Source: Isurus oxyrinchus (Eukaryota). From it: a stretch of 64,000 nt of DNA. The position numbers and the translations under genes were made by a program. The notes under the pieces were generated by a model. It saw only the letters and a list, made by a program, of their open reading frames with translations. It had not been told where the DNA came from and searched no databases. Below, piece after piece: positions 560 to 44,800 of this stretch (positions are counted from its first letter, which is position 1; each line of letters begins with the position of its first letter). The stretch spans positions 18,662,001 to 18,726,000 of the forward strand of contig JANJGN010000008.1 in assembly GCA_026770705.1 (NCBI GenBank), given 5' to 3'.

Positions 560-1930
560 TGTGAATGACTGTTAGTGTTGCAAGGCCTTAAGGCCAACTC
601 AGACATGCATAACTATAAACCGGACAAAAGAACTGGAATAGTTAACCTTAACAAGTGTGACTATATCTGCAAAATGAATGCCATTCTTAATGATGGGCCC
701 AAATTCGTGTCCAATGCCCCTGCCACTCAGCATAACTCTACAGCCTTGCTTGAAAGCAAGCTAAAAAAGCACTTGTTGGATGTGAGGAGGAGCAACAAGT
801 TGCAGGGTGATGTACATGATAGGATTCATCCTCACAGTTCACTGTGTCCATGTACATATGGGCTGCTGAAGACACAGAAAAGTGATGTCCCTTTGCACTC
901 AATCTTATCTATAACTGGTTCTCCACATTATGAATTGGACAATTGGCTGGGTGAGTTGCTACAGCCAGTTTTGAGTAATTTTTCTACATACACGGTGAAG
1001 GACTCCTTTGCTTTTGCAAAGACCATCCAGGACCTGTATATTGACAGCAATGCTGTGTCCATATGCTGCTTTGACATTCCTGGCCTATTCACCAATGTTC
1101 CACTTCAAGAGGCCATAGATATTTGCATTGTAGCACTTTATCATGGTGATCTAGATGCGTCACCATTGCATGAATCAGTATTCATTGAACTTATGAACTC
1201 AGCAACTAGCACAGTTGAGTTCAGTTTTAACAACATCATGTATGCTTAAATAGATGGTGTTGCCACGGCACTTCCTTTTGGTTCAGCTCTTGCAAACATC
1301 TTTACTGGGTTCCACGTGAAATGTGTCTTTGAGGGAATGACTCCTACCCTGGCATATATCCCATATAGGAAAATATAGTGTTTGCTATATTTGAACTTGC
1401 TGCTGCATGTGAGAATTTCCTTACATACCTTAGTGGGCTCCATCCTGCGCTCAAATTCATCTTTGAAAAGGAGCAGTCAAGTGAGCTCCCCTTCCTTGAT
1501 GTGTTAGTTGAGAAAACTGGCAGGGGGCTCTCTACCATGGTCTACCATGAGCCTACCTTCACTGGTCAATAAACTCATTGGGATTCCTGAAGTTCCATGT
1601 GCTGTAAGATTGGCCTTATTGGCAACATTGTAAATAGGGCCTGAGCCATTTGCTCAAAGTGCAAACTTTATGCTGATTTAAGGTGCATCAAAGTTATCCT
1701 ACAGCATAATGGCTATCCAGATCAGATCATTGCCAGCTGTATTTCAGGCAAACATGAATGGGCCGAAGGCCGTCATTTTCGGTCCTGAAAAGTGCCCAGT
1801 CTACCTCAGATTACCCTTTGGCCTTCATCACAATCTCCATAAGGTTGCCAACCTGTGGTAACTGAACGTGTTGCCCCTCCCTCCTGTCAATCACCTGTGA
1901 TGTACTGTGGGGCCTTCAACCTGCGAGCTC
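560..1930 (+). mobile_element. Decayed Penelope-like element, reverse transcriptase
   Basis: PLE RT motifs KPDK.TGIV, YGLLKTQKSDVPL.SILS, VKDSFAF, FDIPGLFTNVPL, FSFNNIMY..IDGVA, LPFLDVLV. Contains stops and frameshifts. Confidence 0.85.
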
Positions 1931-11794: not shown

Positions 11795-11882
11795 ATGAGT
11801 CTACGAATTTTCTGCAGCAAATTGTCAGCTGGCTCGATGTTCAGTTTCTTTGTGTTTCTATTTCCGCCTGTTTTCACACAAA
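11795..11882 (+). CDS. Leader/signal-peptide exon (MSLRIFCSKLSAGSMFSFFVFLFPPVFTQ)
   Basis: ATG at 11795, hydrophobic core, phase-1 donor A|GTAAGT at 11883. An upstream acceptor (tatttctcacag, ending 11772) implies a further 5'UTR exon. Confidence 0.75.
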
Positions 11883-20800: not shown

Positions 20801-23800
20801 TGTTCCCGAGTGGTGAAAATTTCAGGAGCATTTGGAGCATTTGGTGGCCCTTTCATGCCTCTGCATTGCTTCACTGAGAAGAGAAGCTAGAGGCCTGACT
20901 CCAAGCATGTCAATGTGGCTGCATCTGAACTGTCTCAGCTGTGGAGGAACGGTCACTTCATACAATGTTTCCCTAATGTGTGGCCATCTCTCTCCACCTC
21001 TGCCCCGCTCCCTGCATGTACTTCTACACCACCATCAGACTGTGCTGCTTTCCCACCCTCCACCAACAGCAGCACAGCCCTTGCTCCAGAACCGCACAGT
21101 CAGCCAGTGGGGAAATAGCGAAATGCCTGTGCCCTCGCCTGAATGTGTGGCGCTTGTTTCTTCAAGTCAAGTGGGCGACCCTGGCGAGCGCTGTGTAACG
21201 TTAGTGCACACTCGCCCCCGAGTTCCTTTGGAAATTCAGCTCACCGGGTGCACCATCTTTTACATGTTGCCGTGAAACACGTCGGCGTATAATCTCACCG
21301 ACATTCCCAGATCATCCAGCACGGGGGGATGATTCTATTGGGCAGGGCTTATAATAATATGCAGATGTATGAAAATGACATTCCTGATGTGCGGCAGCAG
21401 GAAACGTGGTCACCCATTGACGGGTGGAGGGGACGTTCGCAAAGTTGGTTTCACAACGGAGTGGAAGTGAATTTTGGCCTTCTCACCATATTGTTCACTC
21501 ACGCCCACCATAGCGCCCGACACCAACGGGGATGGCAAATTCCAGCCAAAATATTAAGTATTTTTCTCTCTTCACAGATGCTGCCAGACCTGCTGAATAA
21601 TCCCAGCATTTTCTGTTTTAATTTCAAATTTTCATCATCTGCAGTATTCTGCTTTTATTATGAATTATTACAGACATTGAATTAAGAACTTGGATTAAGA
21701 ATTGAGGTTTACCATTAAAATAATTACATTTCCTCTTTCTAACAGGTAACACAAATCATATTTATTTTTTGGATGAGGGAGGTGATATCTCACTAAAAGG
21801 ACCAGACAATCCTGGAGATGGTCCTGTTGTCTGGAAATGGAAACCACACTCAGGGCAAGAAATCCAACAGCTGGTTACTTTTCGGAGAGACAGATCATGG
21901 AGGTGGAGTGCAAAATGGAGCAAACAATTTACAACCAGTGAGTTTTTCCAGAGGATAATAAAAGATCGGAATACCATTGATCTGAGAATTCGCAATCCCA
22001 TAATTCAATTTGCTGGATTGTTCACCTTGACTCAGACACAGCCAAGAAATGAAATCCTGAAACGTTATGAAATATTTGGGATCAAAGGTGAGTGGAACAA
22101 AATGTAGAAAAAAAACTATGATTTTCCATGAATAATATCAGGTGTAATGATTAGAAATTGCTGGGATCACATGGTTCAGGATTTTGAATTTTGGGTCAGG
22201 ACGCCGACGTTTGGGTCATATGGGGTTTACAATCCTGCCCCTGTTTGGGCACAGTCACCCAGCAGTGATTTTCCTTCAATTGGTCAATTAGAGGGCAGGC
22301 TGGCCTGATATTTGAGGATGGTGGCCAGACTTTCAAAGCTGAGGACCAATGGGAGGCTCAGATATAACAGCAGTCTGCAGCTCTGGTAAGAGAGAGCGGG
22401 TGCATTCATCTTGAGGTGTCCCTTCTCCAAACTTCCTAATCTATTAAATTAAAATTTTGTCACAGCAATCGGATCACAATTGTGGAAGTGGAACCCTCTA
22501 CAGTGTGGCCTATGGCTGCAGTTGTGGCCGTGCAAGTGGGGAGGACCTGAAAGCCAGTCTTGAGTATTTATCCCCCTGCTCAGACACCGGGTGGTAGCCA
22601 GCAGGTAGCTGGCCTTGTTCCCCCATGCATCAGGAGGCCCACAGACTGACTGGAAAATTTCAGTCTGAGTTTGCTGATTGTCCTTGATAGGCCTTTAACT
22701 CCTCCCACTTTGGGTAGTCTTCCTGACTCCCAAGCCGCCTCCAGGAAAATGGCCCAGGGATGGGATGGTTCCAGGAAACAGGGCTGGGGGTGGGGGTGTG
22801 GCATAAAAATTACCCCAGCAGCTTTATGTCAGCCAGTGCGATGCACATTCCTCATTATAATTATCGGGGGAAAGATTCTGTTCATTGTTTCTATTGAAAT
22901 GGTCAACATGAGTAAAAGAATATTGACAATTTAACCAGGAACAACAAACTGAGGAATCTACGCCATAGATACCATTATGGCCTATACATTGACAGACTCT
23001 CTGTAAGATGTACTGAATTCTGTTACCAAATAGCTCCCTTGTGCTAATAACTCTCATCATTGTGAGATAGAGGGCCAAATCTGAGAATCAAAGGGCAGAA
23101 TTTTGCCTGTCCCCAGGAGGCAGGAATGGTAGCTTTGTGCCCAGAATTTCAGACGGATCTGTGGCAGATTATCTCCCTGACCATGTTCTGCCATGGGGGA
23201 GTTTTACTGCCATGAGGGAGTTTTACTGATGATGGGACCAGAATCAGGCAGGTTGCGGGAACCCCATAGGAATATGTAAATACCCTATTAAACTCCATTT
23301 TACCAGGCCACCAGCATTCTGCCATCAGCGGATCAACTCCCTGCTGTGTGGAGAAACCACCAGCTAAGTGAAGACAGCTTCTCAGTGACAGCCTGGGGAG
23401 GAGGGGTTTTAGTATTAAAAAGGGGGTCACGGCCCAGTTGGCACTGCGGACCCTGCTGGGCTACCAGTCCTCTGACTGGGGGATTCATGCACATTGATCT
23501 TTGAAGTTGGTGGGACATATTGAGAGCAGTTCACAAAGCATATCCGACACTGGATTTCATTTATAAAGTTACTGCCGGAATTTACATTCCCCAGTGGTTC
23601 ATAACCTGGAGGTAACCCAGAAGATGTGCTCGGCAACCCGCTACCCGCTCCCCCGTCCCCCCTCTTCCCCCCCAACCACCTCCAGCTGTCCCCAGACAAG
23701 GACTACACAGGAGTTGCCCAGGAAGTTTAAGCTTCTATTGGATAACAACCCTGTACCTAGAACCATCCGAAACTTGATTTATATCGGAGAATTTGATTGG

Positions 23801-26800
23801 TTCCAAATATTTAAGCAGAATTAAAGCCAAGTCTAACTCCTGGTAAACATTGTACTGAACCCCCAAACATCCTACCTTCTGACTCCCCACCTCCCCTGCA
23901 ATTGTAAGATCACCCTCTCTGGTCTAGAAGTTCTTGTCTCTACTGTTGATATCAATGATACACAACAACTGGGGATACTGTTTCACTCAATGTGAAACAC
24001 CTTTATTAAATCTCTAAGCTATAATACACACTCACAATGATACTGGTTACTTAGGAATCCCATGTCCTCGGGTCCATCTCATGTGGCCAGTCCTTCAACA
24101 GATCTTGCAGGGTGACTTTGGAATGTCTGACTAGGCCTCTCTACCGACTGTAGTAACAAGGTCCTTGAGGGCTGTGTCTTTATATACCTTTCAGACCCTG
24201 GGCCTTGGCATATAAGTCAATTCCTTTAATCAGACTGTCCAATTGGATTATTAATCCCACCCTGGCCATCCATGACCACCCCTACATGGTCATATCCCAC
24301 TCTCAGCAGGTGCAGGGGGTCTCTCCATGCGAACAATGGGTGTAATCACTATAACCTGGGGCAGGAAGAAGGCCATTCACACTTTCTGATTGGGCATCGT
24401 CTAGTTCAGTTTCTGTAGGTGAAGTGTCTATGGCAAACCACCACCTCAGTGACCTGCCTTGATATGTCTGTGTCTGTTTAGTTGAAACTGTTTTTAATTT
24501 TAATGGTCAATATGAGCATCAGCGATGTCTCCGTCAGAATTCTCCCTCCGTAGCTCCACCTTCTCCCACCATGAAACAATCTCTGCCCACAGGTCTCCAC
24601 CATAACCAGTTTACATTCATTAATATGAAAGAAATGAAAGCGGTCACATGATTAAAAATGATTAATAAAATACAATTAAATGATTAATTGGCTTACACAA
24701 CTCCCTCTCAACATCTCGACCACCCCTCCTGAACAGCCCCTCTCAATCAGCCGAACCCCCGCCCACTGGGTGGTCCTACTGTAATGGTGTGGGCACGTTG
24801 AGTACAGGGTAGGACTGGTGCCTTCTCCGTGACAGATATTATGGGTAATACATTTCCAGCACATCCAGTGAGTTGCCAGCACCTGTTGATTTTGTTGGGC
24901 TTCCCTAAATACCATTCCAAACTATGTAAGCTTGGCTTGATGGGCCGAATAGCCTCTGTGTGTTACAATCCCCATGGAGACAAACAATGTGAAAGAATCG
25001 AACTTCCCAAATGATCTTAAATGCAAGAAAGCAATGGACAAGTTTTCACTTTTTAAAAACTTTGAGTGTAAAATAAAACCAAAATATATTAGTCATGAAT
25101 GAAGAGACAAGTTGTATTCATTAGCCATTTTAAATTGCACTTTAAATAGCCAATAAAACAAGGATAGATTGCAAAAATGTCCTGGCAGTTCCCCCCGAAT
25201 GTTTGGCACCATGTGCAGAATCCAAAGTCCCTCATAATTCTGGTTTCCTCAAGTAGGGTTTAACTCCTTTCCCTCATGCAGTGTTTAATCACGTAGCCTC
25301 TGACAACAGCCTTACTCCATCCCAGTTCTGAGTATACAGTTATCACCAAAAAGGCACATTTCAGCTCATGACAGTCCTGATGGCGTAAATTCCCCAGAGT
25401 CACCTTCACCCGGCCACTCCAACACTCCAGGAAATGATACAGCCAGCGCTGGTAAAACTTGTAACAATGGCAGTATCTTTCATTCACTACACTGGCTGCC
25501 AAAATCTAGACTTCAGTTTTTCTTTCTATTTTAGCTACAGTAATTCCTCACTAAATTTAGGTAGGAAACAATAATTCTTTGCCAAACCAAAATTGAGGGG
25601 AGTTCGTTCTGAGACAGCCTCACTTCTCCTCAGCAACTCAAGTTTGTGTAATCAGAACTCATGCTCCATTTGAAGCTTTTTGCTCTTGCTTCCTCTTTCC
25701 CTTCAAGTATGTCACCTCTTTCTGTATCTCTTTGATCATCTTTTTCCTCCCGTGCTGATTTCTCCCTCTCTCAGTCAATCTTTCTTAGTTCTATTCCTTT
25801 TTCAATTCTGGTCAGCTGTACTCAATCTTTAAAGGAAACAATCCTTCCTTGGGCCCCAAGTGCCTGAACAATTCTTCAAGGATCCTGCCCCTGTTAGCTC
25901 CTGATCTTATGTTCATTCTCATGTGCTCTGCTACAGCCTCGAAATGGTCTTTTCTCAAGTGTTTTCAGTCTCTGACAGTTAGACAAGGCTTGAACCTCAA
26001 TGGTGAATTTTCCAATAGAATATAGCAAAAGCAAATGTGAAGTCTTGTTTGTTTAAATGCTGGAAAGTTCCAGTGAATCCCTTTTACAGTCACTGGGTTT
26101 AATTACCGACTTGAGCCCAATTTTCTTACAATCCTGGTGGGGAACCAAAACAACCAAATGTGTCAAATGCCTTCTAAAGAAGAAACTACCAACAAGATTT
26201 CACTTTTTATAACTTTAACACAAATCAGAATCAACATGAATTAAACATGAATGTGTACCATAATAATCACTCTATGACTCCAGGAATGGTAATTGTGCTG
26301 GTGGATGGGGACCGTGAATTGTCATCCCCACTGTGTTGTTCTACTGGTAAGATGCACTTGTGTTTAATCTGGCCAGACCCTTTAATGCAGGAAGGTACAA
26401 GTGCTGATGATGAGCACATCCAAAGATCAGTTAGAACCTAATCACTGGATTGTAAATGCCACTAATTACAATAAATCTTATTGATCTGTCTTTCACAGCT
26501 GAAGCAAGTCCACAGTGGGCTCTGGTGGGCAGTGACATCACTCTCAGTTGTACCATCTCCAGACTCTCAGATACAGTCAGTCTTCACTGGAAACAGAGAG
26601 ACTCATCTCAGCAGAACAGGAGGAAAACTGATCAGATCCGACTAAATGACACAGCCTATCTGATGGTCAAACATGTTACAGTAGAGGATGGGAACTTGTA
26701 TGAGTGTGAAGTGAAGGAAAATGGATCCAATGTTATCACAGGAAATGCAGATATTTCTGTGTCCCAATGTAAGTGCAGTTTCCTCATAGGGGATATTCAG

Positions 26801-29800
26801 AGCTACTAACATAAAACTAGGACAGAGAAACGTAGTCATACATGTGAATCTTGAGCACTTCATACTAACAGTCACAATATGGGGTTCTGATATACATATC
26901 AACATTAAACAAAAAACTGACCTCTCTCCCCTCAATACCACTTCTAGTCAAGTGCTGCTGCTACTTGGTGATTCCAGTTGGTGCAGGTGGTAGGTTTCAA
27001 ATAAACATTGAGTTGGGAACAGAACTAAGGGAAGAGGGAAGGACAGGGAAACAATGAATGGGAAGGGGAAGGATGGAAGTGATAGGAATGTAGAGTAGTA
27101 ATGGTGGACAGAGGGCATGGCAGGGACTGGGATTGGAGCTCTGGGAGTGGACAAGGGGAAAAGATGCGAGTGACAGTGAACAGAGGATCAGAGCTTGTAT
27201 TTACACAACGTACAGAAACAATCCAGGTAACTGAATGGGGAACCAATGACCAGCTACAGACAGAAAAGTCGAGTTTGGGGAATGAGGACATAAGCGATAT
27301 TTGCTTTTCTTGTCTCTCACCTTATTGAGACTGGAATTTTCAAAGTAAGTGAGGCAGTTCAACAGCAGAAGGTAGAAAATCTGAATTGCAGCATGTGTTT
27401 TATAAATGGTGATGCGCTGTTTAATAAAACTAGCAAATTCTTTCAGTCACAGAGCGACTTGAAGAGAGAAAAGATTTTCTTCACTAAAGAGAGAGGAAGT
27501 GGATCTCAGAATTAGTAAGAATGTTCAGAAAGGCGAGTGAAAGCTTAGAGAAAGAGAGAGGCTTTCATCCACGCGAAGACAAAGGAGGAGGTGGAGAAAG
27601 TCAAGAAGGGAGAACTGGAAGTTAGACTGAAGGAAACAGAAGATTTTGATACCAGTTGTGGAATAGAGGGAGGGGACAATGAGAGAACGACAGGGAATGT
27701 GAAGGAGATCATCCTGCAGGAAATTGCAGAGTTAAATTGGGATGAGTCTGTGGAGTGATTTGTTGATGATGTTGAAGATTTCTGATTTAATGCATTGAGA
27801 GACAGTGTCTGTTAGTGAGGATGTTCGAGGAGGATTTAGTGTGGGTTAGAATATGGACAGATAGCATGTGCAAAGTCATCTTTGTGAGATGTTAAAGGTG
27901 CTGCTAATTTATTATTCCCCATTCATGATTGCTCCCTGGACAATAAGTGAAGGATTCCCAACCTTCCAATTTTGCCAGCTGGCACGTGTATTGCTGGAGC
28001 AAATAAATTGACTTTGGGTTAGTCTGGCTGAGGAAATTTGAAAGATGTGATAATAGAGAAATAAAAAATCATGCAGGAATTGCACAGGTATAAATCCTGT
28101 ACAAGATATTAAGTGTAACAGGAGACAGATGTTCACTGTGAAGACAGCAACTCAAGCAGCAGAAGCTGGATTGTTTATGTGGGTCAGGGGCATGGAACAG
28201 GTATCTGCCCATTTCATATTAGTGAGCGGAGAACTAGAGGCAGAATTTTGTCATGATATTCTGCATCGTGCTATTTCTGAATAATTATTACATACAAATG
28301 TGGACTGCACTTGCCTGAAGGGAACCATATTTGGGACATTGCAAAATTCTATGCAAACTGTAGCCCCATCAGCAGGACTCGATGTTGTTGGCAGAACCTC
28401 ATAATATTTGGGCATGTGATGTCATAGTGTCATTCATAGCGAAAAAAATGTTAAAACTCAAAAAGATTTTATGTTATTTTCAGAACAATCTATTGATTTT
28501 TCATTTTGAATTCAGCCAATTTACAATGTTTAAACAACTCTTATCTTTGACAATAGTGTTAGATGATCAAAGCACAAAACATTTTCACAAAGTTATGATT
28601 ACTCATTATTTTTACTGTTTTCTGTACCTCCACATTCAAAAATTCTAACATATTGCTCTCTGTGGCTCTATTACAGATTTATATGGGGAGAGTTACACTC
28701 TTTATCGATCAGGCACAGATCACAGTGAACTCTACCTGATTTGTTTTGTTAAGAGTAATTTTCACTCTGCTGCATGGATTTGGACGTCACATCATCTTCC
28801 AATTTTGGAGGCAACAATAGCATCTGTATCCAATTCCCAGGTCATTAAAGCAAACAGCGTGCACTTTGAGAATCGACTGGTCCCCACAGTGGCAAATTTT
28901 ACTGGTGCGAACTTCAGTATGAGGATTGTCCCTGTTCTGTTTGAAGATGCTGGAGTTTACAAATGTTCTCTGGGACCATATAAAATGGTGACCATTCAAC
29001 TAATCACAGTTAAAGGTAGGAGACAGAATGTTGCTGCTGTTTTCAATGATCAAGTCAGTGTTTAAAATGTAAGTTATTTTCTTGTTTACACAGTGACAGC
29101 TGAACCATCTGATGCGGTGACTGAGGGAGACACCGTTATCCTGACTTGCTCTGTTTCTGATGTCACTGAATCAATGAGACTTGTTTGGATCGATAGTGAT
29201 GGCAAAACTGTTGTAGAGAAGACATTGAATGGATGGAATAGGGAAGAGAAATCATTAAAACTGACTATTCTGAAAGCTGAGAGAGGCAGAGGGAAGTGGA
29301 TTTGTGTTTTGTTTCATCAAAACAAGCCCCAGGTTTCTGCCCCGTACTATCTGGAACCCAGCGGTAAGTGACTCAGGGTTTGCTCTTTATATTTTTGCAC
29401 TTGATAGAAAATTCTTGTAATTTATTGGTCTTATTGCCAGTAAAAAGTGAGCCTTTCTATCCTGCGGATGAGGGTCTACAGTGGTTCTGAGCATCAGAAA
29501 ATTTACCCTGAGGTCACTCAGCACAGCCTGGGATCAAACTTGGAAAATTCCTGCTTTGTGCACCTCAAATCTATTCTTGGTAAACTCACTGAGACAGAGG
29601 AAGCATTTATTTTTAACAGCAAAGTGGAGCCATTTTCAATAGTTTTCTGACCCACAGTCAATCAGAATTCTGAGGCTGAATGCCCAACATGATCACACCA
29701 GATGTTATTCACAGCTGCACACATTGAAATTGAAACTCTCCATTCCTCAGACACAGAGAATCTCTTCTTCTCTCTCTGCCTCAGCTGATCCTGGAAACAT

Positions 29801-32800
29801 CTGAACCTCATCACTCTCGTTCTAACTGAGCGGGGAGTTCTTTGTGAGTGTAACTCACTCCTGGACTTGAACACAAATATCATGCTTGACATGAGGGCTA
29901 CAACCAGTGGATCAGATCTAAGCTCTGCTTCCTGGAACATCCAGTTGTGAATGGTGGTGGACAATTAAACAACTCACTGGAGGAGGAGGCTTCACAAATA
30001 TCCCCATCTTCAATGATGGAGGTGCCCAGCACAGCGATGCAAAAGATAAAGCTGAAGCATTCGAAATGATCTTCAGCCACAAATGCCAAGTGGATGATCC
30101 ATCTAGGTCTCCTCCGGAGGTCCCCAGCATCACAAATGCCAGTCTTCAGCCAATGTGATTCACTCCACGTGATTACAAGAAACAGCTGACGGCACTGGAT
30201 ATTTCAAAGGCTGTGGGCACTGACAATACTCCTGCTATAGTACTGAAGACTTGTGCTCCAGAACTTGCCGCACCCCTAACCAAGCTGTTCTAGTACAGCT
30301 ACAACACTGGCATCTACCAGGTTATTTGGAAAATTGTCCCGGTTTGTCCTGTACACAAAAAGCAGGATAAATCCAACCCGGCCAATTACCGGCCCATCAG
30401 TCTACTCTCGATCATCATTAAGTTAATGGAAGGAGTCATTAACAGTGTTATCAAGTGGCACTTGCTTAGCAATAACCGACTCACTGACGCCCAATTTGGG
30501 TTCTGCCAGGGCCACTCAGCTCCTGACCGCCTTGGTTCAAACATGGACAAAAGAGCTGAACTCCCAAGGGGAGCTGAGTCTGACTGTCCTTGACATCAAA
30601 GCAGCATTTGACCGAGTGTGGCATCAAGGAGCCCCTATAAAACTGGAGTCAATGGGAATCAGGGGGAAACTCTTCACTATTGGAATCATACCTAGCACAA
30701 AGGAAGATGATTGAGGTTGCTGGAGGTCAATTATCTTAGTTCCAAGACATCACAGCAGGAGTTCCTCAGGATAGTGTCCTGGGCTGAACCATCTTCAGCC
30801 GCTTCATCAATGACCTTGCTTCCATCATAAGGTCAGAAGTGGGGATGTTCGCTGATGATTGCACAATGCTCAGCACTATTGGTGACTCCTCAGATACGGA
30901 AGCAGTCCATTTCCAAACGCAGAAAGTCCTGGGCAATACCGAGGCTTGGGCTGACAACTGGCAAGTAACATTCATAACATACAAGTGTCAGGCAATGACC
31001 ATCTCCAACAATAGAGAATCCTACCATCACCCATTGATTTTCAATGGTAATACCATCACTGAATCCCCCACTATCAATATCCTGGGGGTTACCATTGACC
31101 ACAAACTGGACTGGATTAGCCAAATGAATACTGTAGCTACAAAAGCAGGTCAGAGGCTAGGAATCATACGTTGAGTAACTAATCTCCTAACTCCCCAAAG
31201 CCTGTCCACCATCTACAAGGTACAAGTCAGGAGTGTGATGGTACACCCCACTTGCCTGGATGAGTGCAGCTCCCACAACACTGAAGGAGATGGACACCAT
31301 CCACCGCAAAGCAGTCCACTTGATTGGCACCTCATCCACAAACACTCACTCCCTCCACCACCGACACACAGGAGCAGCAGTGTGTACCATCTACAAGATG
31401 CACTGCAGGAATTCACCAAGACTCCTTTGACAGCACCTTCCAAACCCATGACCACTAACACCTAGGAGGACAAGGGCAGCAGGTAGATGGGAACACCACC
31501 ACCTGGAGGTTCCCCTCCAAGTCACTCACCATCTTGACTTGGAAATATATTGCCGTTCCTTTACTGTTGCTGGGTCAATATCCTGGAGCTCCCTTCCTAA
31601 CAGCACTGTGAGTGTACCTACACCACATAGACTGCAGCAGTTCAAGAAGGCAGCTCACCACCACCTTCTCAAGGGCAACCAGGGTTTGGGCAATAATTGC
31701 TGGCCCAGCTGGCGAGGCCTATATCCCATGACTGAATTAAAAAAAAGGTCATTTAAGAAGCAGCTGAAGATGGTGGGGCCGAGCACGACCCTGAGGAATT
31801 CCTGCAGTGATGTTCGGGAACTGAGATGATGAACAACCACAACCAGCTTCCTTTGTGCGAGTTATGACTCCAACGAGCAGAAAGTTTTCCCTCCAATTAC
31901 CATTTACTCAAGTTTTGCTAGGGCTCCTTGCTGCCATAATTGGTCAAATGCTGCCTTGGTATCAAGGGCAATCACTCTCACCTCAGCTCTGAAGCTCAGC
32001 TCTTTTGTCCAGGTTTGAACAAAGTCTGTAATGATGTCCGGATTTGAGCAGCACTGGCGGAACCCAAAATGAGTGTTAATGAGTAGGTTATTGGTAAGCA
32101 AGTACCGCTTAATAGCAGTCTTGATGTCCCCGTCCATCACTTTGTTGATGTTGAAGAGTAGGCTGATGGTGTGGAAATTGGCCATTGGATCTGTCCTGCT
32201 TTTTGTGTACAGGACATACTTGGCCAATTTTCCACGTTGCCAGATAGATATCAGAGTTGTAGCTATACTGAAACAGCTTGGCTAGGGGCACAGCAAATTC
32301 TGGAGCACAAGTCTTCAGTACTATTGCCTGAATACTGTCAGGGCCCAATGACTTTGTACTATCCTGTGCTTTCAGCTGTTTCTTGATATCACATGGAGTG
32401 AATTGAATTGGCCAACGACTTGCTCCGTGATGCTGGGGATCTCTGGCAGAGGCCAAAATGGATCATCCACTCTGCACTTCGGGTTGAAGATGTTTGCAAA
32501 TACTTCAGCCTTATCTTTTGCACTGATGTGCTGGTCTCCTCCATCGTTGAGGATGGGGATAATTGTGGAGGCTCCTCCTCCTCCCGTGAGTTGTTAATCC
32601 ACCATTCATGACTGGATGTGGCAGGACTGCAGAGGTTAGATCTGATCCATTGGTTGTAGAATTCCTTAGCTGTCCATCACTTGCTGCTTATGTTCTTTGG
32701 CACGTAAGTATTCCTTGTTGTAGCTTCACCAGGTTGACACCTCATTTTTTGGTATGTCTTCTGCTGCTCCTAGGATGCCTCCTGCACTCTTCGTTGAACC

Positions 32801-35800
32801 AGTGTTGATTCCCTGGCTTGGCGGTAATGGCAGAGTGGGGATATGCCGGGCTGTGAGGTTACAGATTGTGGTTGTGTATAATTCTGCTGCTGCTAATGGC
32901 TCACAGTACCTCATTGATGCTCAGTCTTGAGCTGCTAGATCTGTTTGAAATCTATCTCATTTAGCACAGTGGTAGTGACGCACAACCCAATGTAACGTAC
33001 CCTCAAAATGAAGACAGGACCTCCTCTCCACAAGGACTGTGCAGTGGTCACTCAAACTGATACTTTCATGGACAGATGCATCTGCAGCAAGCAGGTTGGT
33101 GAAGATGATGTCAAATATATTTTTCCCTCGTTGGTTCCCTCACCATCTGCAGCAGCCCCAGTCTAGTCGCTATATCCTTCCAGACTCAGCCAGCTCGGTC
33201 TGTATGTTGCTGCCGAGCCACTCACAGAGTGCATTTTGTGCCCTTGCCACTCTCAGTGCTTCCTCCAAGCGGTGTTCAACATGGACTGATTCATCAGTTG
33301 AGGGAGGGATGGTACATGGTATGCAACAGGAGGTTCCTTGCCCTCATACAATAAGACTTCATGGAAGTCAGGAGTCAATGCTGAGGACTCCCAGGGCAAC
33401 ACCCTCTGACTGTTGCCGCCAACTCTGCTGGATTTGTCCTGCCGGTGGGACAAGACATATCAAGGGATGGTGATGGTGGTGTCTGGTATCTTACCTCTAA
33501 GGTATGATTGCATGAGTATGAATGGGGCCTAACCAGCATTTTATATAGTTTCAGCATTACATTCCTGCTTTTGTATTCCATACCTCATCTAGAAAAGAAA
33601 GCATTCCACATGGCTTCTGTTATCATGCAGCAGATGATATGTGCCAGGTGGATCAAATCCACGAATGAAACTTGATTGCGCTGTCACAACCTTTTTGCAA
33701 TTTGTATTTATTTTGCGACACGTGCACTGAGTTCAGAAGTAATAATCCACCAAGATTTGAGAGATTTTTTTTAAACTAAAATTAATATATTTATTAACAA
33801 AAGAGAAGATTTGAAGCACATACATGGAACTACAAATTACTGCTATAACAACTCCTGCTTAGCTACAAAATATAACTAAATCACATACAGAGACAGAAGA
33901 ACACAAACTCTCATAAATCCACTTTACAATGAACTAGAAAAGTTATGAAAATTATTAGACTCTCATTGCACTTCTTTACTGTTGTGAAACCTTCAGGGAC
34001 CTGTGAACATGCACTTCAAGGTCTCTCACTTCCTCAACCCCTCTCAATAATTTCCCATTTATTGTGTATTCTCTTGCTTTGTTTCTCATCCCAAAATGCA
34101 TTACCTCACACTTCTCTGGATTGAATTCCATTTGCCACTTTTCCACCCACTCAATCAAACCATGAATATCATTTTGAAATCCACAGCTATCCTCTACAGT
34201 GTCAAATACGCAACTGATTTTTGTGTCATCTGCAAATTTCCCAAACATGCCTCCCACATTTAGGTCCAAACCACTAATATATAACACAAACAGCAAGGGC
34301 CCCAACACTGAGTCCTGTGGAATGTCACTGGAAACCTGTTTCCATTCACAAAAACACCTGTCAATTGTTTCCCTTTGATTCCTGTCATTGAGCCAATTTT
34401 GGATCCAACTTGCCACATCCCCCTGTATCCCATGGGCTTTTACTTTTCTGACTAGACTGATTCAATGAAAGAAAGGTCTTGCATTTATATAGCACCTTTC
34501 ACATCCACAAGGCATCCCAATGTACTTCACAGCCAATGAACTGCTTTTGAAGTACAGTTACTAGTGTGTGTGATGAAATGTAGCAGTCAATTTGTACAGT
34601 CAGGTCTCACAAACATCAGTATGACAAATGGCCAGTTAGTCTATTTTGAAGTTAAGAGTAAAATATTGGCCTGGCCAGCAGGGAGAACTCCCCTGTTCTT
34701 CTTCAAATTGTGCCATGAGATCTCTTACGTCCACCTCTGACAGTGCAGCACTCCCCCCTGTACTGCACTGGAGTGTCGGCCTTGATTATGTGCTCAAGTC
34801 GGCCTTGATTATGTGCTCAGTGAGTCGGCATTTGCAATCTGGCTTCCCGGCTGGTGGATAAAAGTATATTTGTAAGCAGCTAGGATCAGTGCCCACCTTT
34901 GGATGCGTGCAGAAGCAATTGGGGATATTGCCTTATCTTCCCAAACAAGCCTAGTAATGGCTTGTGATCAGATACAATGGTGAAGTGGCAACCATGGATG
35001 CATTGGTGGGACATCTTAATGCCAAATATGATGGATACTCAATTTACGAGTATCTTCATTCTGCAATGCTGAGTCAAATTTGAGACGTAACCAATGGGCC
35101 GTTTGGAGCCATCCACCATCTGGTGGGAGAGTGATGCCCGTATTCCGCAAGAGGATGTGTTTTAGGTGAAAATGATTTCTTTCCTTTGGTTGAAATGTAC
35201 CATCAGGGCCGATGAATGTAGTCACTGCTTTACTGTCGTAGAAGCCTGTCGTTGTGGAGCTTGCCAAGTGCACCTGTGGTTTTTCTTGAGTAAACTATAT
35301 AGTGGAGCCAGTACTGCTGACAAATTTGGGAGAAAACGGCCACAATAGATAATCATTTCCAAGCAGAACTCGAGTTCTATGGTGTTTTTTGGTGTTGGCG
35401 CTTCCCGAGTAGCTCTCACCTGGTCTCCTACTGGGCGAAGGCCCTGCCCAGGGAAACCACTTTTTTTTGCTTGATGATTGCACATTGTTCGGAAATATAC
35501 ATTACTTAAGTAACTTATACATGTATTTAAGTGTATTATGGATAACGTCCATCTTTAAGTTTGACTTTTAGCTTCAATGTTTAAGCCATCCTTCTATCTG
35601 TGGGTTAAAATGTGAAACCTGGGATCAAGTTTCATTTTTCAGTGGAGACAGCAGGTCTAAAGCTCTGTTTATATACCTGCACTTCTAGTGAGATTTTTAT
35701 GACTTGTGAAGGAGAGTTAAAGGCAACAAGAATGGAGAAAAAAACTGTGTCATTGCCTAGCAACAGTTGTCCAGAGATGGAAGCCCTCCCACACAGACAG

Positions 35801-38800
35801 AGAAAGCAAAAGTTTAATTTCAATTGGTCATTATGCTGTAAATTGAACGGAGAACTTTAAGTCTCTCTCTGGCTGACATACCAGCAGACGGCTAAGGGAA
35901 ATAAATCTAAGAATCTGAGATGCGTTTCTCTAAAGTTAAAGTAATGAATGTCAACTCATTAACTGAATCCTGGAAACTTGGTGTCACAAGGAAGTCACCA
36001 CTGTCTGCAACTCTCCGTATCCTTTTTGACTGAAGGATGTTGATGAAATACAAAGGATGCTGTCCAGTATGAGTGCTCAACGTGCTTCCTGCTGGTTTAG
36101 TTCTTTTATGGTATAAATATTGGAACAACGCTGAAGAATTTTAAATTTATTGGAGTCACTCCAGCTTCTCTCAAGGTAAAGGTAGCTGCTGCAATGTAGT
36201 GAGGATAGATCTCCCCTTAATTGGGATAGAGGCATCTTGATGACTCAGTAGCTTTCTACTCAGGGATTTAAGTTAAATATTACTTCAAATATGGATGGAT
36301 ATCTTAAATATCTCACTGAAGCATTAACAAGTCTTGGATTCTCACTATTAGGAATGGGATTATATTAGCTGTCCTAGAACGAGTAATGTTGTGATTGAAT
36401 AGTCATTCAACATGAATTGCATGTTCTATTCTTTTATTAACTTTTATATAATTTAGAAAATATACTGTTTCACATAGTCTTCTGTGTCCAAACTCAGAAA
36501 GCTTTCTCCATATACACTTCAGTGGAGAGGTTGAGGGGGGATGCCCGGATCCTTATAATACCTGAGTTATTGTATTCTAGCTAAAACTTGTTAAAATGGT
36601 TATCTGGAGGATGGTAATATGCTCTGGTGTTTCCATTCCATCAGGGAGAGTTAAATCAGTGTTTCAGACCTATTTAAGTCTCTGTTTGGCCTGTCTTACC
36701 CTACTTTGAGTGAGAGTGTTTATCCAGGAAGTACACCTGATCTGAAATGGTTACATAAAGGGCTAGGATTATAATTCACTTCAGCGGCTCCCCCATCCCT
36801 TGCCATCCCACCACCCCCATCTATATAATCCCCTCGAGCCCCACAACTGCCTGAGCGCTCATCTGATTCTGGCTTCTTGAGCATCCCTGATTTTAAGTGA
36901 GATAAAAACAGAAAGAGCTGTAAAATTCCAGCAGTTCTAGCAGCATCTGTGGAGAGAGAAACAGAGTTAACATTTTGAGACTGATATGAGGCTTCTTCAG
37001 AAATGGAGAGACCAATTTTAACTGCTTCATCATTGGTGGACGTTTCTTCAGCTTCTGAGGCCCCATGTTCTGGAACCTTCTCCCAACACCACTGCCTCTT
37101 TACCCACTTCCTTCTTTTAAGACGCTCTATAAAATCTCTCTCTTTGTCTAAGCTTTTGCCCATGTGCCCTGATATCTCTTCATGTCACTCAGTTTCAAAT
37201 TTTGTTTGATACCACTCCTGTGAAGCACTTTAGGGCATGTTGACATGTTTATGGTCCTGCATAAGTTCAAGGTGTTGCTGAGATTTTTCTCGTTTAATTC
37301 TGTTATATCTTTTTCCACTCTTTGTAACTGTCTTGGAATTTTTTTCATTCAAATTGCTATGGAAATGTGAGTGTTTCTTTTGTTTAAAGGGTTGATGACT
37401 GGGAGCAAGTCTGAGAAACCACAATCCATTATAATAACTGTTTCTTTGGGACAACGACCTTCATTCTTTCAGCTACACAGCACATTATCCTGGTGTGTAT
37501 GTGTTATATCACATCTGAGCTGAATCATAAATAACAACTTATTGAAAACAAATTGTCTACAGGATTAACAGTTACACAAATTGGAATTAAAATTTGCTTT
37601 CTGATTTTGAAATATTTATTCCCTTTCCTTGCAGGAAGTCAGAATAATATTTATTTTTTCCATGAGGAAGGTTTCTTTGTATTGAAAGGACCAGACAATC
37701 CTGGAAATGGCTCCATTGTCTGGGAATGGGGACCACATTCTGGGAACCAAACTACAAAACAATTGGGAATTTTTCACAAAGATGATCAGCGGTGGGCTGT
37801 ACAATGGAGTGATGAGTACATTAATAAACCAGACATTTCTCAGGGGCTCCATGAGGTCTGGGGCACCCTTAATCTGAGAATCAGAAACCCCATGTTTAAC
37901 CTTGCGGGAATGTTCACCTGGAGCCAGTCACAGCCCAGGAAGAAAATCCTGAAACAGTATGAAGTATTTGGGATCAAAGGTAAGTTGAACAAGGAATAGA
38001 ATGGGTTCAAATTGTGTTTTTCTGTGAGTAATTCCAATAATATTCTGAACACAATGTTGGGATCATGTCATTTTGCTCCAGTTCTATCACAAGAACAACA
38101 ACCTATAATTACATAGCACCCTTAATGTGCATAAACCATCACAGCATGCTTCACAGGAGCATTGAGCTACATAAGGTGATATTTGGCCAGACAATCAAAA
38201 CCTTGGTCAAAGAGACAGGTTTTAAGGAGTGTCTTAAAGGAAGAAAGCAAGAGGTTTAGAGTTGAGAGTCATAGGCCAGGACTTAGTTCCTGTGAATGGT
38301 TCTGCCCTGCAGTTGGATGACCAGTGGGAGTCCCGCATCACTCCTGTGGGGGAGGACCGAGGCAAGTAAGTGCTCATTTGGCACTTAATTGGTAAGCATC
38401 GGGCCTTCCACTGGATTTAGGAGCCCAGGGATGGAAATACCACCCGTAACCTAACTGCACTCCAGAGAGTAATGCTTCCTGGGACTTCTCAAGGATCAGT
38501 ATTGGATTCCTGAACACCTGAGTGCAGGAGGGATGGGGGTCGTGGGGTGAAGGTTGCCTGAAGGGTGGGCAGGGACGATCAGAGGCAAAAGCAGAAAGTG
38601 TGGCATTTGGTGCACCCCACCCCCGCTCCCCCCACCCTGCTTCATGATGCCAGGTTCCTCAATCAGGCATAGGGTGTCTGACAACGAATCCCCCAATGAA
38701 GTCACACGCAAACCCAACATTATTGGTATTAACATGAGCATTTGTTCACCGATTAGAGAGCTGCCATTGATTTCTGGTGGGTTTAGGATCATTGGCTTCA

Positions 38801-41800
38801 AGAGCCTCATTAATTTTTCTACTTGACAAACTGCAGTCAGGGAGTGGAAATCCCACATCGTGCCCATCGCACCCTCAGCTTTACTTGGGACAGATTTCCT
38901 GAAACTGGGAATCCTATGCAGGTATTTCAGCCTGACTCCCTACCACTCACAATCGTGCCCGCTCTGGTGGGCAAAGCTAAATTACATTCATAGAATTCTT
39001 AATGGCACAGAATGTGGCCATTCCACTCATCGACTCTCTGCTGGCTCTCCATAGAGCAATACAATTAGTCCCATTCCCTTGCTCAATCCCCGTAGAGCTG
39101 ACAGTTCATTTCCAGAAATTAGGAGCCCAGGAAACTGAAGATGTGGCCATCAATGCTGGAGAGATTAAAATTGTCAATATTTGAGAAACCAGAATTCATG
39201 GAGTGTAGATATCTTGGAAGATTGTGGGACAACGGAAGATTCCATAGGTTGGGAGAGGTGAGTCAGTGGAGGATGTTGAAGACAAGGGTGAGAATTTTGA
39301 AATAGAGATGTTGCTCGAGTGGGAGCCAATGTAAATCAGTGAGCACAGGGATGATAGGGAATGGGACTTAGTACAAGTTAAGACACGAACATGAATGACC
39401 TCTACAAAGGGTAGAATGTGTGAGACCGGGCAGGACTGCGTTAGAATCATTGAGTCCAGAGATAACAAATGCATGGATAAGGTTTTCAGAAGTTGTTGAG
39501 CTGAGACCTGTGCAAAGTTGGGCAACGATATAGAAGTGGAAGTGGGCAGTGTTAGTGACGGCATGAATTTTTGTCTCCTTATTTAAGAAAGGACTTAATG
39601 CCATTAGAAGAAGTTCAGAGCAATGTTCACTAGATTGATTCCCGGGATGAGGGTGTTACCTTATGAGGAGAGACTGGGCAGACTGGGCCTGGAAACCTTG
39701 GAATTTAGAAGAATGAGACGATCTTATTGAAAGATCTTGAGACAGTTTGACAGAGTGGGTGCTGAAGGGATGTTTCCACTTGTGGGAGGGACCAGAAGCA
39801 GGTGACAAAGTTTAAAAATAAGGGGTTTCCCATTTAAGATGAAGATGAGGAGAAACATTTTCTCTCTGAAGGTAATGATTCTGTGGGACTCTGTTCCCAG
39901 GAGAGTGTTAGAGTCAAGGTCATTGAAAACTTGAAGGCAGAGGTAGATAGATTCTTGACTAACAGGGGAATCAAAGGATATTGGGGATAGGCAGGATAAT
40001 GGCGCTGACGCCACAATCAGTTCAGCAATGATAGTGTTGAATGGTGGAGCAGGCTCAAGAGGCCGAATGAGCTACTCCTGCTCCTAATTCATATGTTCAT
40101 CTGTGCATATGGATATCAGTTTGAAGCTCATCTAGGGGTCAAATGTGACACCAATTTGTGAACAGAAAGGCTTAATCGCAGGCCGTTGTCAGGGAGAGGA
40201 ATGGAGTCAGTGCCTGGAGAATGCAGTTTGGAGTGGGGATTGGAAACTACGGCTTCAGTTTTCCCAGTAATTAATCACCCAGCCCAAAGTGAATCTCTGA
40301 CTAAACATGTCAAGTGGCTGAAAATGCTTTGTGCATTACAACTAGTGAACGTACTAAGGGGTTAGTAGTGCTAATTATAAACGTTAGCATTTGTCTAGAA
40401 TCATAATATTACTTAGACAAGGACCATGGAGGGGGATGAAACTGGTGGCCACCTTATGGAGTTGTGGTGAAGGCCGAATATGATGACATCGATTTTTCAA
40501 ATATTTACCTTTCTCGTTCATTACTTCACGGGATGTGGGCTAGCCCAGCCTTTTTATTGGCCATCCCTAATTACCTTGAGAAGGTGGTGGTCATCATCTG
40601 ACTTCTACCGAATTCAAATTTCACCATCTGCCATGGTGGGATTCGAACCTGGGTCCCCAGAACATTACCTTGGATCTCTGGAGCAGCAAAAAGAGGAGGA
40701 GAGGAGGGACGAGGGAGCGAAGGGGAACAAATGAATATTATCCAGAAACTGCCAATTGACAGCACTAAGCACTGCTGGTTGGCATTTGTCTGATTATATG
40801 TGTTCATAGTGAAAGAAAACTCCTAATGCATTGGTTCCACAGCTTAATGAGAAATATCAGCTTCATATATCTGTTTTTACAGTTGAGACCGATTCCCGGA
40901 GGCCTGTAATGGGCAGTGACGTCACCCTCAGTTGTACCATCTCCAGACTCTCAGATACAGTCAGTCTTCACTGGAAACAGAGAGGCTCATCTCAGCAGAA
41001 CGGGAGGAATAACACTGATGAGATCCATCTGAATAACACTGTCTATCTGATAGTCAGACATGTTGGAGCAGGAAATCAGAATCTGTATACATGGGAAGTG
41101 CAGGAAAATAACTCCACTGTTCTCACTGGAAACACAAATGTTGATGTGGATTGGGGTAAGTCCAGAGCTACCTCGCAGTAGATATTAAATAGTTACTGAT
41201 ATAAAACTATTACACACAAAGTACAGTGATCACTGACGCCACTGTGGGATTTTGCTGCAGAATGTGCTCCTTGTTTTTGCTCTTGACATGGGTGTAAATA
41301 GAAAATGGCGACATGAAGAACTGATGGAACCAACCAGGTGGGTTTATTTTAATTCACATCAGTGAAACAAAAATAATCAAATCCTTCAATTGAAAAAGCT
41401 AATGTGATTCCAGTCGATACTGGAATAGAGAAATACAAACAAATTAAAGACACCCAACACAATGATAAAAGATTCGGGTCTTTCCTGAACCATTTTCTCA
41501 GTGAAGCTGGGAACTTACAAATATGATCAGAGTGTTTTACATTTATGGTTGTTCACATACTGGTAACACCTGAATAAATGATACATAACCCAGGGATGTA
41601 AGAATAAGGCCACTTTAATCTAATTGGTAATTTGTGTCCATCACACAGATACCTCTTTAGGCCTTTTGAAAAAGAATCAAAGAATTCCTTGGTTAGACAA
41701 GGTCAATAATGAATTGTTAAACTGATTTCACATTGAGTGAACATGCAGAACATTTATGATCAGCTTCATTTAGTTCAATCACCTGTAACATATCCTTGTG

Positions 41801-44800
41801 AATAATGTGACCATGATGGCCTAGATCTTCCAGTCAGTGACAATGCTGGGCATGTTGCTTCTGCCTCCAAAGTATGACCAGCCCTGTGGGGAGGTGGTGG
41901 CATAGTGGTATTGTCAGTTGACTGGTGTGCCAGAGACTGAGGATAATGTCCCGGGACCCGGGTTTGACTCTCACCATGGCAAATGTTGAAATTTGAATTC
42001 AGTGAAAGTTTGATGATGACCACAGGACCATTGCCAATTGTTGGAAAAAGACATGTGGTCCACTAATGTCCCTTTAGGGGAAGGAAATCTGCTGTCCTTA
42101 CCTGGTCTGGCCTACATGTGACTCCATACACTCAGCAATGTGGTTGATTTTTAAATGCTTTCTGACCAAGGGCAATAATTACTGGCCTAGCTAGTGACAC
42201 CCACATCACAGGAACCAATAAAAAAAAACAATCCTGGCCATTTATTCTGGGATCACACAATTGTAACAGCACAGAAGGAGGCCATTCAGCTCATTGTGTC
42301 TGTACTGGCTCTCCAAATGAGCATTATGACCCTGCCTTTTCCCTACAGCCCTGCACATTGTTTCTATTTAAATAATCATCCAATGCCCTCTTGAATGCTT
42401 CCATTGAACCTGCGTCCACACAGTTCCAGGTGGTGTATTCCAGACCCAAACAACTCATTGTGTGAAATAGATTTTTCTCACACAGGGGTCATGCCCCCTT
42501 CCTCTGACAGTAGCTGCTGTATTCAGGTAATTTCTTAACGGTCCGAGTCCTTTAGTGAATGAGTGTGGGACAATGAATGGGTGAGAAAACGAATGAGTGA
42601 GTTGGGGAGTGGGTGATGTTGGTAATAGGGTCAAGGAGCTAGTCAAGGTGCTAGTCTGGTCTGTTCGGGGCGGGAGAGTGTGAACTAGGGTAGGGTCAGG
42701 AGATAGTTGGGCGTTTGGAAGAATGGTTGGGTTGGGGGGGTGGTGGTTGTCTTGGTTGTGGTGCTCAGTTGAGTTACCCAGCTGTTAGACTAAGTATTAA
42801 ATTGACTAACATTTTCTGGGTAAGCATCCAGGTAAGTCTCGCGTATCTGACACAAGTTCAATTTGGAGACATTTGCAGAGTGTCCCAGCAGCAGGGAATC
42901 AGCCCCATTGGAAGTTTAAAGTTCCTGGGCAACTCTTACATATCTCTGTGCATCAGGACTTCCACAGGGTCTTGCCGCCCATCTCCTGATGTACGTCCCA
43001 TCTCCAACGATCCAAAGAAAGGCTCAAAACCAACATGTCCACTACTTAAACAAATTAACTCCTAACTGCCCAGCAAAATGCTAAACCTCTGAGCTTAGAA
43101 CAAACTTGCCCTTTCAACTTTCTCTTTCAATCTAGACTGACGTTGCAGTGGTTGATGGACTTGTCTTTGCTCTGTCTTTATCTGACCGCCTGGCAACATC
43201 CCAAGGGGACCAGAATTGTCTAATACAATATGTATGAAGCACGTATAGATGCTTCGTTAATGAGACTGATTAACAAGTTGGTTATTACCTGCAGACCTTG
43301 GGGAAACAGCATCACATTGAGAGGGGACATGTTTGGGGCAGATGGATTTTGTGCCATGACCCAGTGTTTAAACAACAGTCAGCCTGGGTCAGCAGCCAGT
43401 TTCTGACCAATTTCCCTGTCCCATTTCTGCACTCCCAGCTGACTTATGCCAGGAGGGTGATGTTTGTCCCTGTGGAAATTCAGAAGATCGGTATCTCAGC
43501 AGCAATAAAAATCAAACACCTTGTCTCCTGTCTCTCTGTTACAGGTTTACACAATAAGAAATACACACTTTATCGGTCAAGCACAGATCACAGTGAACTC
43601 GACCTGATTTGTGAAGCTCATTCTGAGTCCATTAAATCTAAATGGACTTGGTCATCACGTTATTTTCAGAATCAAGAGAAAGAAATATCTTCTGCTTACA
43701 AATCTCAGCCCATTGATGTAAACAGGACCTACTTTGGGAATCGTCTGGTCCCCACAGAGACAAATTTTAATGGCAAGAAATTCAGTGTGAGGATTGTCCC
43801 TGTTCTGTTTGATGATGCTGGAGTTTACACATGTATTTCATGGAATTATAAAATTGTTGCCATTAAACTAATCACAGTTAAAGGTAGGAGACAGAATGTT
43901 GCTGCTGTTTTCAATGATCAAGTCAATGTTTAAAATCTAAATGATTTTCTTGTTTACACAGTGACATCTGAACCATCTGCTGCAGTGACTGAGGGAGACA
44001 CCGTTACCCTGACCTGCTCTGTCTCTGATGTCACTGAATCAATGAGACTTGTTTGGATCAAAAGTGATGGCAAAACTGTTGTAGAGAAAACATTGAAGGA
44101 AAAGAAACAGGAACAGGGTTTGTTACAGCTGATTATTCAGAATGCCGACCGACACAGAAGGAACTGGACATGTGTTTTGTTTCATCAAAACACCCCCAAG
44201 ATTTTAATTCCATATTATCTGAAGGTTAACAGTAAGTGTCTCAGATGATAATCTTTTTAACCCACATCAAGGGTTCTTGTCATTTGCTGATCTTTTGTTC
44301 TGAAATACTCTTATTTTATATATTCTATTGCACTCCATATCAGTGAAAGTTCACAACATTCCTGCAGAAATAAAACTCAAACCACACAATGGAGAGAAAC
44401 TGAAAGGGACTATTTTTTACAGCTTTGATGTCCATGACACTTCTATAAGGAATCCTTTCCACATTAAGTCCCCTCTGTCACTAGTTGACAGTAATTTAGC
44501 CGATTTCCTTGCATCCAGTGTTGCTGGCATTGGAGGCAGTCCAGAGAAGGTTCAATCGGTTGATCCCGGGTAAGGAGGGAATTTCTAATGAGGAGCGGTT
44601 GAGCAGGTAGGGCCTGTACTGATTGGGGATTAGAAGAATGAGAGGCGACCTTATTGAAACAAAGGGTTCTTAGGTGGCTTGACAGGGTCGATGCTGAAAG
44701 CTTGTTTCCCCTTGTAGGAGAGTCGAGGACCAGGGAGCATAATCTCAGAGTAAAGGGGTGCCCATTAAAAACAGGGATGAGGAGGAATTTCTTCTCTCAG

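Follow-up and report, generated by a model that had tools for sequence, protein, structure and literature searches.

The 64-kb window, that is, the whole stretch of DNA analysed here, carries eight Ig exons, which raises the questions of whether they belong to one receptor or two, how such an ectodomain arose, and to which receptor family it should be assigned. We found that the window holds one intact 15-exon gene on the + strand, encoding 999 amino acids (Table 1), and no neighbour gene was found within it. The leader exon matches residues 1-30 of white shark P0010 at 83%, and all eight Ig exons are of phase 1-1 with GT-AG splice sites. A Pfam search gave no match for D1, the most variable domain across the family. 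The cytoplasmic tail is encoded by five exons after the TM exon and contains two ITIM-consensus motifs, and an AATAAA is located at 60041, after the last coding exon. On the strength of its sequence, we propose, with a probability of about 0.72, that the eight exons encode one type I receptor, likely inhibitory, of a CD4/LAG-3-related paired-receptor family.

Table 1. Parts of the gene in the 64-kb window (positions in the window; lengths in nt).
Feature	Position (length)	Strand	Evidence or remark
Leader exon with start codon and signal peptide	11795..11882	+	ATG...GT, phase 1
D1, V-like domain, no cysteines, cassette A	21746..22087 (342)	+	model of relative P0043 has a V fold
D2, C2-like domain, cassette A, YxC in strand F	26499..26768 (270)	+	sequence, Pfam
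D3, V domain, cassette A	28677..29015 (339)	+	sequence, Pfam
D3-D4 intron, 78 nt, cassette A	29016..29093	+	inside putative homogenised tract ~28985-29230
D4, C2 domain with WxC, cassette A	29094..29363 (270)	+	sequence, Pfam
D4-D5 intron, 8,271 nt, LINE-like fragments	29364..37634	+	missing from a public contig
D5, cysteine-less V-like domain, cassette B	37635..37979 (345)	+	sequence
D6, C2-like domain, cassette B	40883..41155 (273)	+	strand-F cysteine lost
D7, V domain, cassette B	43545..43883 (339)	+	sequence, Pfam
D7-D8 intron, 78 nt, cassette B	43884..43961	+	sequence
D8, C2 domain with WxC, cassette B	43962..44231 (270)	+	sequence, Pfam
TM exon, uncharged helix	48554..48658	+	tblastn with full-length relatives
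Tail exon 1	53646..53744	+	YxxL, off ITIM consensus at position -2
Tail exon 2	54388..54465	+	
Tail exon 3	55857..55913	+	ITIM-consensus motif IHYGSI
Tail exon 4	59528..59580	+	phase 1 to 0
Last coding exon	59713..59784	+	ITIM-consensus motif VIYAQV, then stop

The initial annotation attributed the ectodomain to a four-exon cassette duplicated in tandem, and our comparisons bear this out; the cassette has the order V-C2-V-C2 and is related to CD4/LAG-3. Protein identity was 50% for D1/D5, 61% for D2/D6, 54% for D3/D7 and 67% for D4/D8, as compared with 12-24% for the remaining 24 of the 28 domain pairs, and the paired exons are of near-equal length (342/345, 270/273, 339/339 and 270/270). The 78-nt introns between the third and fourth exons match at 74 of 78 bases, and positions 26528-26610 in D2 are 90-100% identical to D6. 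The strand-F cysteine is missing from D6 and from all 29 B-position rows. The similarity of intron sequence beside the donors, also claimed at the outset, held only in part: over 100 nt it exceeded shuffled sequences for D2/D6 (reached by 2 of 300), was marginal for D4/D8 (17 of 300) and was absent for D1/D5 (60 of 300). In the acceptor flanks, the observed similarity was reached by 9, 107 and 174 of 300 shuffles, and outside the exons and exon edges the long introns have only scattered repeat fragments in common. Duplication of a cassette is by itself ordinary for Ig genes. The doubling had further been read as a second round, following the 2-to-4 doubling of CD4/LAG-3; the cassette doubling stands, and an origin of the four-domain unit in that same 2-to-4 event is plausible, the tree leaving it unsettled, with D1/D5 devoid of both cysteines and D2/D6 of WxC.

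Counting Ig exons in relatives, a check suggested with the annotation, revealed that the eight-domain state is common, with 8-Ig models in 17 of the 23 cartilaginous species retrieved. The cassettes cluster by position (A vs B) across sharks and rays (AU p≤1e-4), the single-domain trees comprising 89-115 columns with A/B support of only 91-93. As judged from the sequences, the cassette duplication predates the shark-ray split and is neither local nor recent. Four-domain genes are represented by 53 proteins from 17 species, and cassette number in the family ranges from 1 to 4, giving 4-, 8-, 12- and 16-domain members; most of the database proteins counted are automatic gene models, isoforms included. 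Relatives reach sturgeon, bowfin, eels, characins and one frog. Both ITIM-consensus motifs were present in 60 of 154 family proteins. TM-lysine siblings, which have a charged TM residue and a short tail, made up 25 of the 154 (13 species); charged-TM siblings were present in bowfin and sturgeon too, and the TM lysine was absent from all 12 lamniform proteins retrieved. Family members are likely to come in inhibitory and activating forms.

Since genes with four domains are frequent in the family and no other intron between Ig exons is as long as that between D4 and D5, D1-D4 and D5-D8 might be regarded as two adjacent genes, or as joined by an assembly or annotation fusion, but we consider this hardly credible. 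In tblastn searches of the window with full-length relatives, a single leader exon and a single TM exon were detected, with neither type of exon between D4 and D5, among the matches listed for 5 of the 11 queries, in agreement with the earlier one-gene proposal. The proposed check of the D4-D5 junction also gave a positive answer, in a near relative or paralog: a contig from a public run whose RNA nature is only guessed links D4 directly to D5, with the junction at the predicted splice sites, and its 30 mismatches to the window gene over about 336 bases indicate that it came from a paralog or a related species. Moreover, the C2-to-V1 junction occurs in gene models of 21 of 23 species, and the cassettes, at 72-80% DNA identity, are too distant for a haplotype artefact. 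A separate issue is why two tracts, picked from the window's own identity profile, are so alike between the cassettes, one at the start of D2/D6 and the other spanning the end of D3/D7, the 78-nt intron and the adjoining part of D4/D8. Purifying selection combined with slow shark substitution could account for them, the longer genes having then arisen by independent duplications; the tracts span C2 core strands A-C, which are conserved family-wide, the short intron is largely splice signal, and the excess values are small (0.04-0.06). This explanation seems unlikely to us, as in all 8 lineages A and B share lineage-specific residues, the nearby exon parts are only 55-70% identical in contrast to the intron, and the 4-, 12- and 16-domain relatives are chimeras whose cassette type switches at the tracts in four genera. 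Outside the tracts, the exchange signal was 0.027 (CI 0.009-0.048) in the rest of D4/D8 and 0.023 (CI 0.000-0.049) in D3/D7 residues 61-112. We therefore infer that the near-identical 78-nt intron reflects later exchange between the cassettes; lying inside a later homogenised tract, it gives no date for the duplication. Exchange would keep the two short tracts alike, and unequal crossing-over at them would add or remove whole cassettes, yielding 4, 8, 12 or 16 domains.

To place the family, a fold was predicted for the four-domain relative P0043 rather than for the window gene. CD4 and LAG-3 were the closest solved folds to this modelled family unit, LAG-3 being the top Foldseek match, and other V domains trailed CD4 by no more than about 2 Z units in the structure ranking; a sequence-only ranking placed CEA above LAG-3. 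Among the named proteins looked up, the nearest were coelacanth, caecilian and sturgeon CD4/LAG-3 (E 2.5e-26 to 1e-18), and a collinear profile match to CD4/LAG-3 covered 334 columns (E 5e-25), from strand D of domain 1 to domain 4. The V-C2-V-C2 order was apparent in exon sizes, Pfam, the P0043 model and this profile match. The fourth domain has WxC in its strand F in D4 and D8 (29/29 A rows, 27/28 B rows), and the second domain has it there in 0/57 rows. The P0043 model also predicts that strand G of the V domain runs on into strand A of the C2 domain, at 132-147 and 335-350 (pLDDT about 90). The same four-domain unit, fourth-domain WxC, multi-exon tail and continuous V-C2 strand, together with a D1 uninterrupted by an intron in sharks, are described for CD4, including shark CD4, in PMC10768021. 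In contrast to CD4, the family has ITIM motifs, repeats the unit 1-4 times, is multigene, has a cysteine-less first domain, and lies on a different chromosome in both species compared: catshark cd4/lag3 are on Chr16 (144,966,053 bp) and the family on a separate 244,324,502-bp chromosome, and white shark cd4 is on a chr40 scaffold and the relatives on a 178,954,087-bp sequence. The Cx(C/H) LCK-binding motif was absent from the window tail, and of 102 family tails just one, from an aberrant model, had it; the LAG-3 motif (F/Y)xxL(D/E) was likewise absent from the window tail and present in 1 of 102. The window gene was thus ruled out as CD4 by the lack of Cx(C/H), and as LAG-3, whose tail lies on a single exon, by its multi-exon tail without (F/Y)xxL(D/E). 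LAG-3 has the same ectodomain unit and an inhibitory-type tail, but the window tail has two tyrosine ITIM motifs and the family includes TM-lysine siblings. The window gene is an ITIM-type receptor of a multigene family separate from CD4 and LAG-3.

These fold and profile matches could also be taken to indicate an MHC class II-binding checkpoint receptor of T cells, similar to LAG-3 and lengthened by duplication. We consider this quite unlikely, given the highly variable, cysteine-less D1, the multigene paired layout unlike LAG-3, the chromosomal separation in catshark, and an eight-domain length about twice that of CD4, which is too long for the TCR-MHC gap. Furthermore, sharks already possess both CD4 and LAG-3, according to PMC10768021. 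We prefer the paired-receptor reading. KIR, LILR, SIRP, CD300, CEACAM and teleost NITR are paired families with ITIM or charged-TM members, and the family resembles these and skate MDIR in its clustered paralogs, ITIM tails or charged TM residue, and variable membrane-distal domain; it differs in being built on a CD4/LAG-3-type four-domain unit whose copy number changes in whole units. That it is simply MDIR, or some other fish receptor family that already has a name and is hidden behind automatic labels, appears very unlikely. In skates, MDIRs form a multigene family of Ig receptors with activating and inhibitory members (PMC3031540), and pIgR was among the structure-database matches; however, comparison by name found no protein called MDIR in sets of 68 and 89 matches, three skate species included, and CD4/LAG-3 ranked above pIgR, whereas that source describes MDIRs as CD300/TREM/pIgR-like. 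The 4Ig-B7-H3 ectodomain was likewise lengthened by exon duplication, and zebrafish CD4-2.2 has five Ig domains, as stated in PMC10768021. Both resemble the window gene in that a set of V-C exons was duplicated in tandem, but here the unit comprises four exons, its duplication is older than the shark-ray split, and copies still vary from 1 to 4.

In ITIM receptors, Src-family kinases phosphorylate the ITIMs and SHP-1/2 are recruited, and the motifs in the window tail may act in this manner. The variable tip (D1, D3) would bind ligand, with cassette B as a conserved spacer, and TM-lysine siblings may signal via a DAP12-type adaptor. More tentatively, and at somewhat less than even odds, the family may be a third ancestral CD4/LAG-3 branch of jawed vertebrates, not yet described: a cluster of paired activating and inhibitory receptors that persists in cartilaginous fish as well as in sturgeons, bowfin, eels, carps and frogs, and whose ectodomains are tuned in length, by whole CD4-sized units, through recurrent unequal exchange at the two tracts. 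If so, CD4 and LAG-3 would have branched off, as specialised forms, from an older paired-receptor system. This widespread, apparently unnamed multigene family, with ITIM and TM-lysine forms on a CD4/LAG-3 scaffold, offers concrete candidates both for the origin of CD4/LAG-3 and for the identity of shark innate/NK-type paired receptors, and its natural 4-, 8-, 12- and 16-domain versions would make it possible to test directly what effect the length of the ectodomain has on inhibitory signalling.

Our literature search found no paper naming the family, nor one citing any of the six accessions searched. The family may account for the additional 'CD4/LAG3-like' transcripts of sharks behind the confusion in a 2014 study, which reportedly claimed that sharks have no CD4; the supplement of Venkatesh 2014 is said to list 'several CD4/LAG3-like' shark molecules, and nurse shark AGQ17915.1 may be one of them. 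This protein, recorded as 'obscurin-like protein', belongs to the same family, has the same eight-domain order and is 62% identical to the window gene, but its record stops before the ITIM motifs. White shark LOC121281409 (RefSeq 'uncharacterized') has the same order and is 88% identical; both carry automatic names only.

The eight Ig exons proposed in the initial annotation, D1-D4 forming cassette A and D5-D8 cassette B, were recovered at their positions, all in phase 1-1 with GT-AG ends, and the near-equal lengths of D1/D5, D2/D6, D3/D7 and D4/D8 (342/345, 270/273, 339/339 and 270/270) were borne out. These pairs shared 50, 61, 54 and 67% amino acid identity, respectively (72-80% at the DNA level), as compared with only 12-24% amino acid identity in the remaining 24 domain pairs, in agreement with the proposed paralogy. 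When the window was compared with itself, matches between the cassettes were confined to the exons and the short intron. This 78-nt third intron, between the third and fourth exons, was present in both cassettes, as claimed. The similarity claimed for the donor flanks held for D2/D6 (2/300 shuffles) and not for D4/D8 (17/300) or D1/D5 (60/300).

Coordinates of the gene and other features in the window
Feature	Position	Strand	Basis or description
Leader exon	11795-11882	+	Sole leader in the window; tblastn, full-length relatives
D3	28677-29015	+	
Stop codon, end of coding region	59784	+	Gene model
High-identity tracts	26528-26610; 28985-29230		A-B identity ~90-100%
Intronic segment	21375-21536		Contains a stop codon
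Tandem array	17805-18224		Leader-D1 intron; ~30-nt units, 14 copies, 86% match
LINE-like fragments	29898-30817; 31745-32659		D4-D5 intron; opposite orientation, 77% over 934 nt
Retroelement fragments	62269-64000; 14526-15128; 569-1246		Reverse-transcriptase-like and endonuclease-like; longest open stretch 340 codons, at 62269

The gene comprised 15 coding exons encoding 999 amino acids with no internal stops; downstream of D8, a TM exon without charged residues led to a tail encoded by five exons, whose motifs IHYGSI and VIYAQV both match the ITIM consensus, with an additional looser YxxL. The closest proteins were two from white shark, XP_041050287 (88%) and XP_041049860 (82%), and one from basking shark, P0005 (82%), which points to a probable lamniform source. 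The N-terminus of XP_041050287 matches the intronic segment that carries a stop codon in this window, and the true leader exon is probably absent from that model. The tandem array adjoins retroelement-like fragments.

The initial annotation had favored one gene over two, having seen no TM or leader exon between D4 and D5. Consistent with this, tblastn with full-length relatives revealed a single TM exon, besides the single leader, in the whole window. The D4-D5 junction was found in a 342-nt contig of run X1, which is presumably RNA: bases 1-153 aligned to 29212-29364 and bases 160-342 to 37642-37824, and the seven-base offset corresponds to the opening seven bases of D5, placing the join of the two exons at the predicted sites. 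The contig differs from the window by 7 plus 23 mismatches and thus represents a paralog or a related species. The D2-D3 and D6-D7 joints were visible in run X2. Nurse shark AGQ17915.1 ('obscurin-like'), which we infer to derive from a transcript, carries a leader, eight domains and a TM within a single record. The duplication is real, contained in one gene, and ancient. Pairing within the pre-mRNA is conceivable for the two opposed LINE-like fragments between D4 and D5.

The age of the doubling was assessed in single-domain trees of 87-88 rows, to which each locus contributed one of the 154 family proteins and from which partial domains were excluded. In the D1/D5, D2/D6 and D3/D7 trees (support 91-93) a single change sufficed to separate first from last cassettes, as against four in the D4/D8 tree. 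A tree of concatenated sequences from 14 eight-domain genes gave an A/B split with an SH-aLRT of 100, and rejected separate doublings in lamniforms (p-AU 1.2e-4) and in rays (p-AU 1.3e-11). On these sequence comparisons, the doubling is older than the shark-ray split. The C2-to-V1 junction is also present in an elephant shark model with long branches, which may reflect the same event or a separate one.

Identity between the cassettes was uneven, falling to 55-80% outside the two tracts, the second of which includes the 78-nt intron (74/78 matches). In a four-point protein test of within-gene against cross-lineage A-B distances, within-gene cassettes were closer in each of the two tracts, with excesses of 0.041 and 0.056, entirely positive intervals and agreement across 8/8 lineages. 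This test gave a smaller excess in the remainder of D4/D8 and the end of D3/D7, and none in D1/D5 or the remainder of D2/D6. Long genes carried chimeric extra cassettes, of the form B,A,A,A in Hemitrygon and two catshark cases and of the form B,B,B,A in Mustelus and Heptranchias; A,B,B,B was seen in a skate gene with four domains. Such chimeras are the products expected of unequal crossing-over within the two tracts, a mechanism that would generate the extra cassettes.

Two protein searches (68 hits of 102 candidates; 89 of 6063) and a cluster look-up yielded 154 family proteins, a count that includes isoforms; they represent 23 cartilaginous species, and almost all bear the name 'uncharacterized'. 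The eight-domain order occurred in 34 of them (17 species) and a single unit in 53 (17 species), while six had 10-15 detected domains, including four-unit proteins of ~1,710 aa in catshark and Mustelus. Both ITIM motifs were found in 60/154, and a short tail with a TM lysine in 25/154 (13 species); the two types occurred together in 11 species. The lysine was missing from all 12 lamniform proteins. Divergence was 0.48 for D1-type versus 0.28 for D5-type domains, with variation focused mid-domain. By analogy with paired receptors, the product would be an inhibitory receptor whose variable D1-type tip would contact ligand, with cassette B as a likely spacer; the ITIMs would likely recruit SHP phosphatases, and the TM-lysine siblings likely activate via an adaptor.

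The doubling by itself is unremarkable, and automatic annotations already contain it; of greater interest is that the gene belongs to a family of paired receptors, apparently undescribed, in which a CD4/LAG-3 scaffold is repeated a variable number of times. The accessible portions of PMC10768021 and its supplements cover shark CD4 and LAG-3, with no mention found of this family. PMC3964593 is said, in the portions available of PMC6238376 and PMC6795676, to list 'several CD4/LAG3-like molecules', and its main supplement may bear on novelty. No name for the family turned up in the literature searched, including the accessible parts of PMC3964593, PMC10751288, PMC11372145, PMC3031540 and PMC8813856, a scope mostly outside the subscription journals where fish receptor families often appear.

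Searching 1.84 billion representatives with a profile gave 846 hits at E 0.001; among the best 150 of these, 20 were looked up by name, and the members among them belong to elephant shark, sturgeons, bowfin, eels, tarpon, a sucker, a characin and a frog, Mixophyes. Their tails are ITIM-like or their TM helix has a lysine. Six (P0190, P0195, P0202, P0208, P0216 and P0238; characin, frog, unnamed) lack the first V domain and begin at the second. In Anguilla rostrata P0156 and P0159 the repeated unit has three domains (V1-C2a-V2), so this expansion is a separate one; the 2,139-aa eel model has internal repeats of its own as well as TM segments in its interior, and may be a fusion of several genes. 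The divergent single-unit paralogs P0142, P0143, P0161 and P0162 (sawfish, horn shark, sevengill shark, elephant shark) are an older branch, the first three on contigs equal in size to those of the main cluster. P0194/P0207 (XP_078461712.1, auto-named perlecan-like), a receptor whose V-C2(WxC) unit is repeated several times and whose tail is rich in tyrosine, was placed near CD4/LAG-3 first pairs and is possibly an independent accordion on that scaffold. In bamboo shark, the locus numbers of two HPGD-like genes, LOC122556487 and LOC122556492, flank that of family member LOC122556491, which hints, from numbering only, that they are neighbours.
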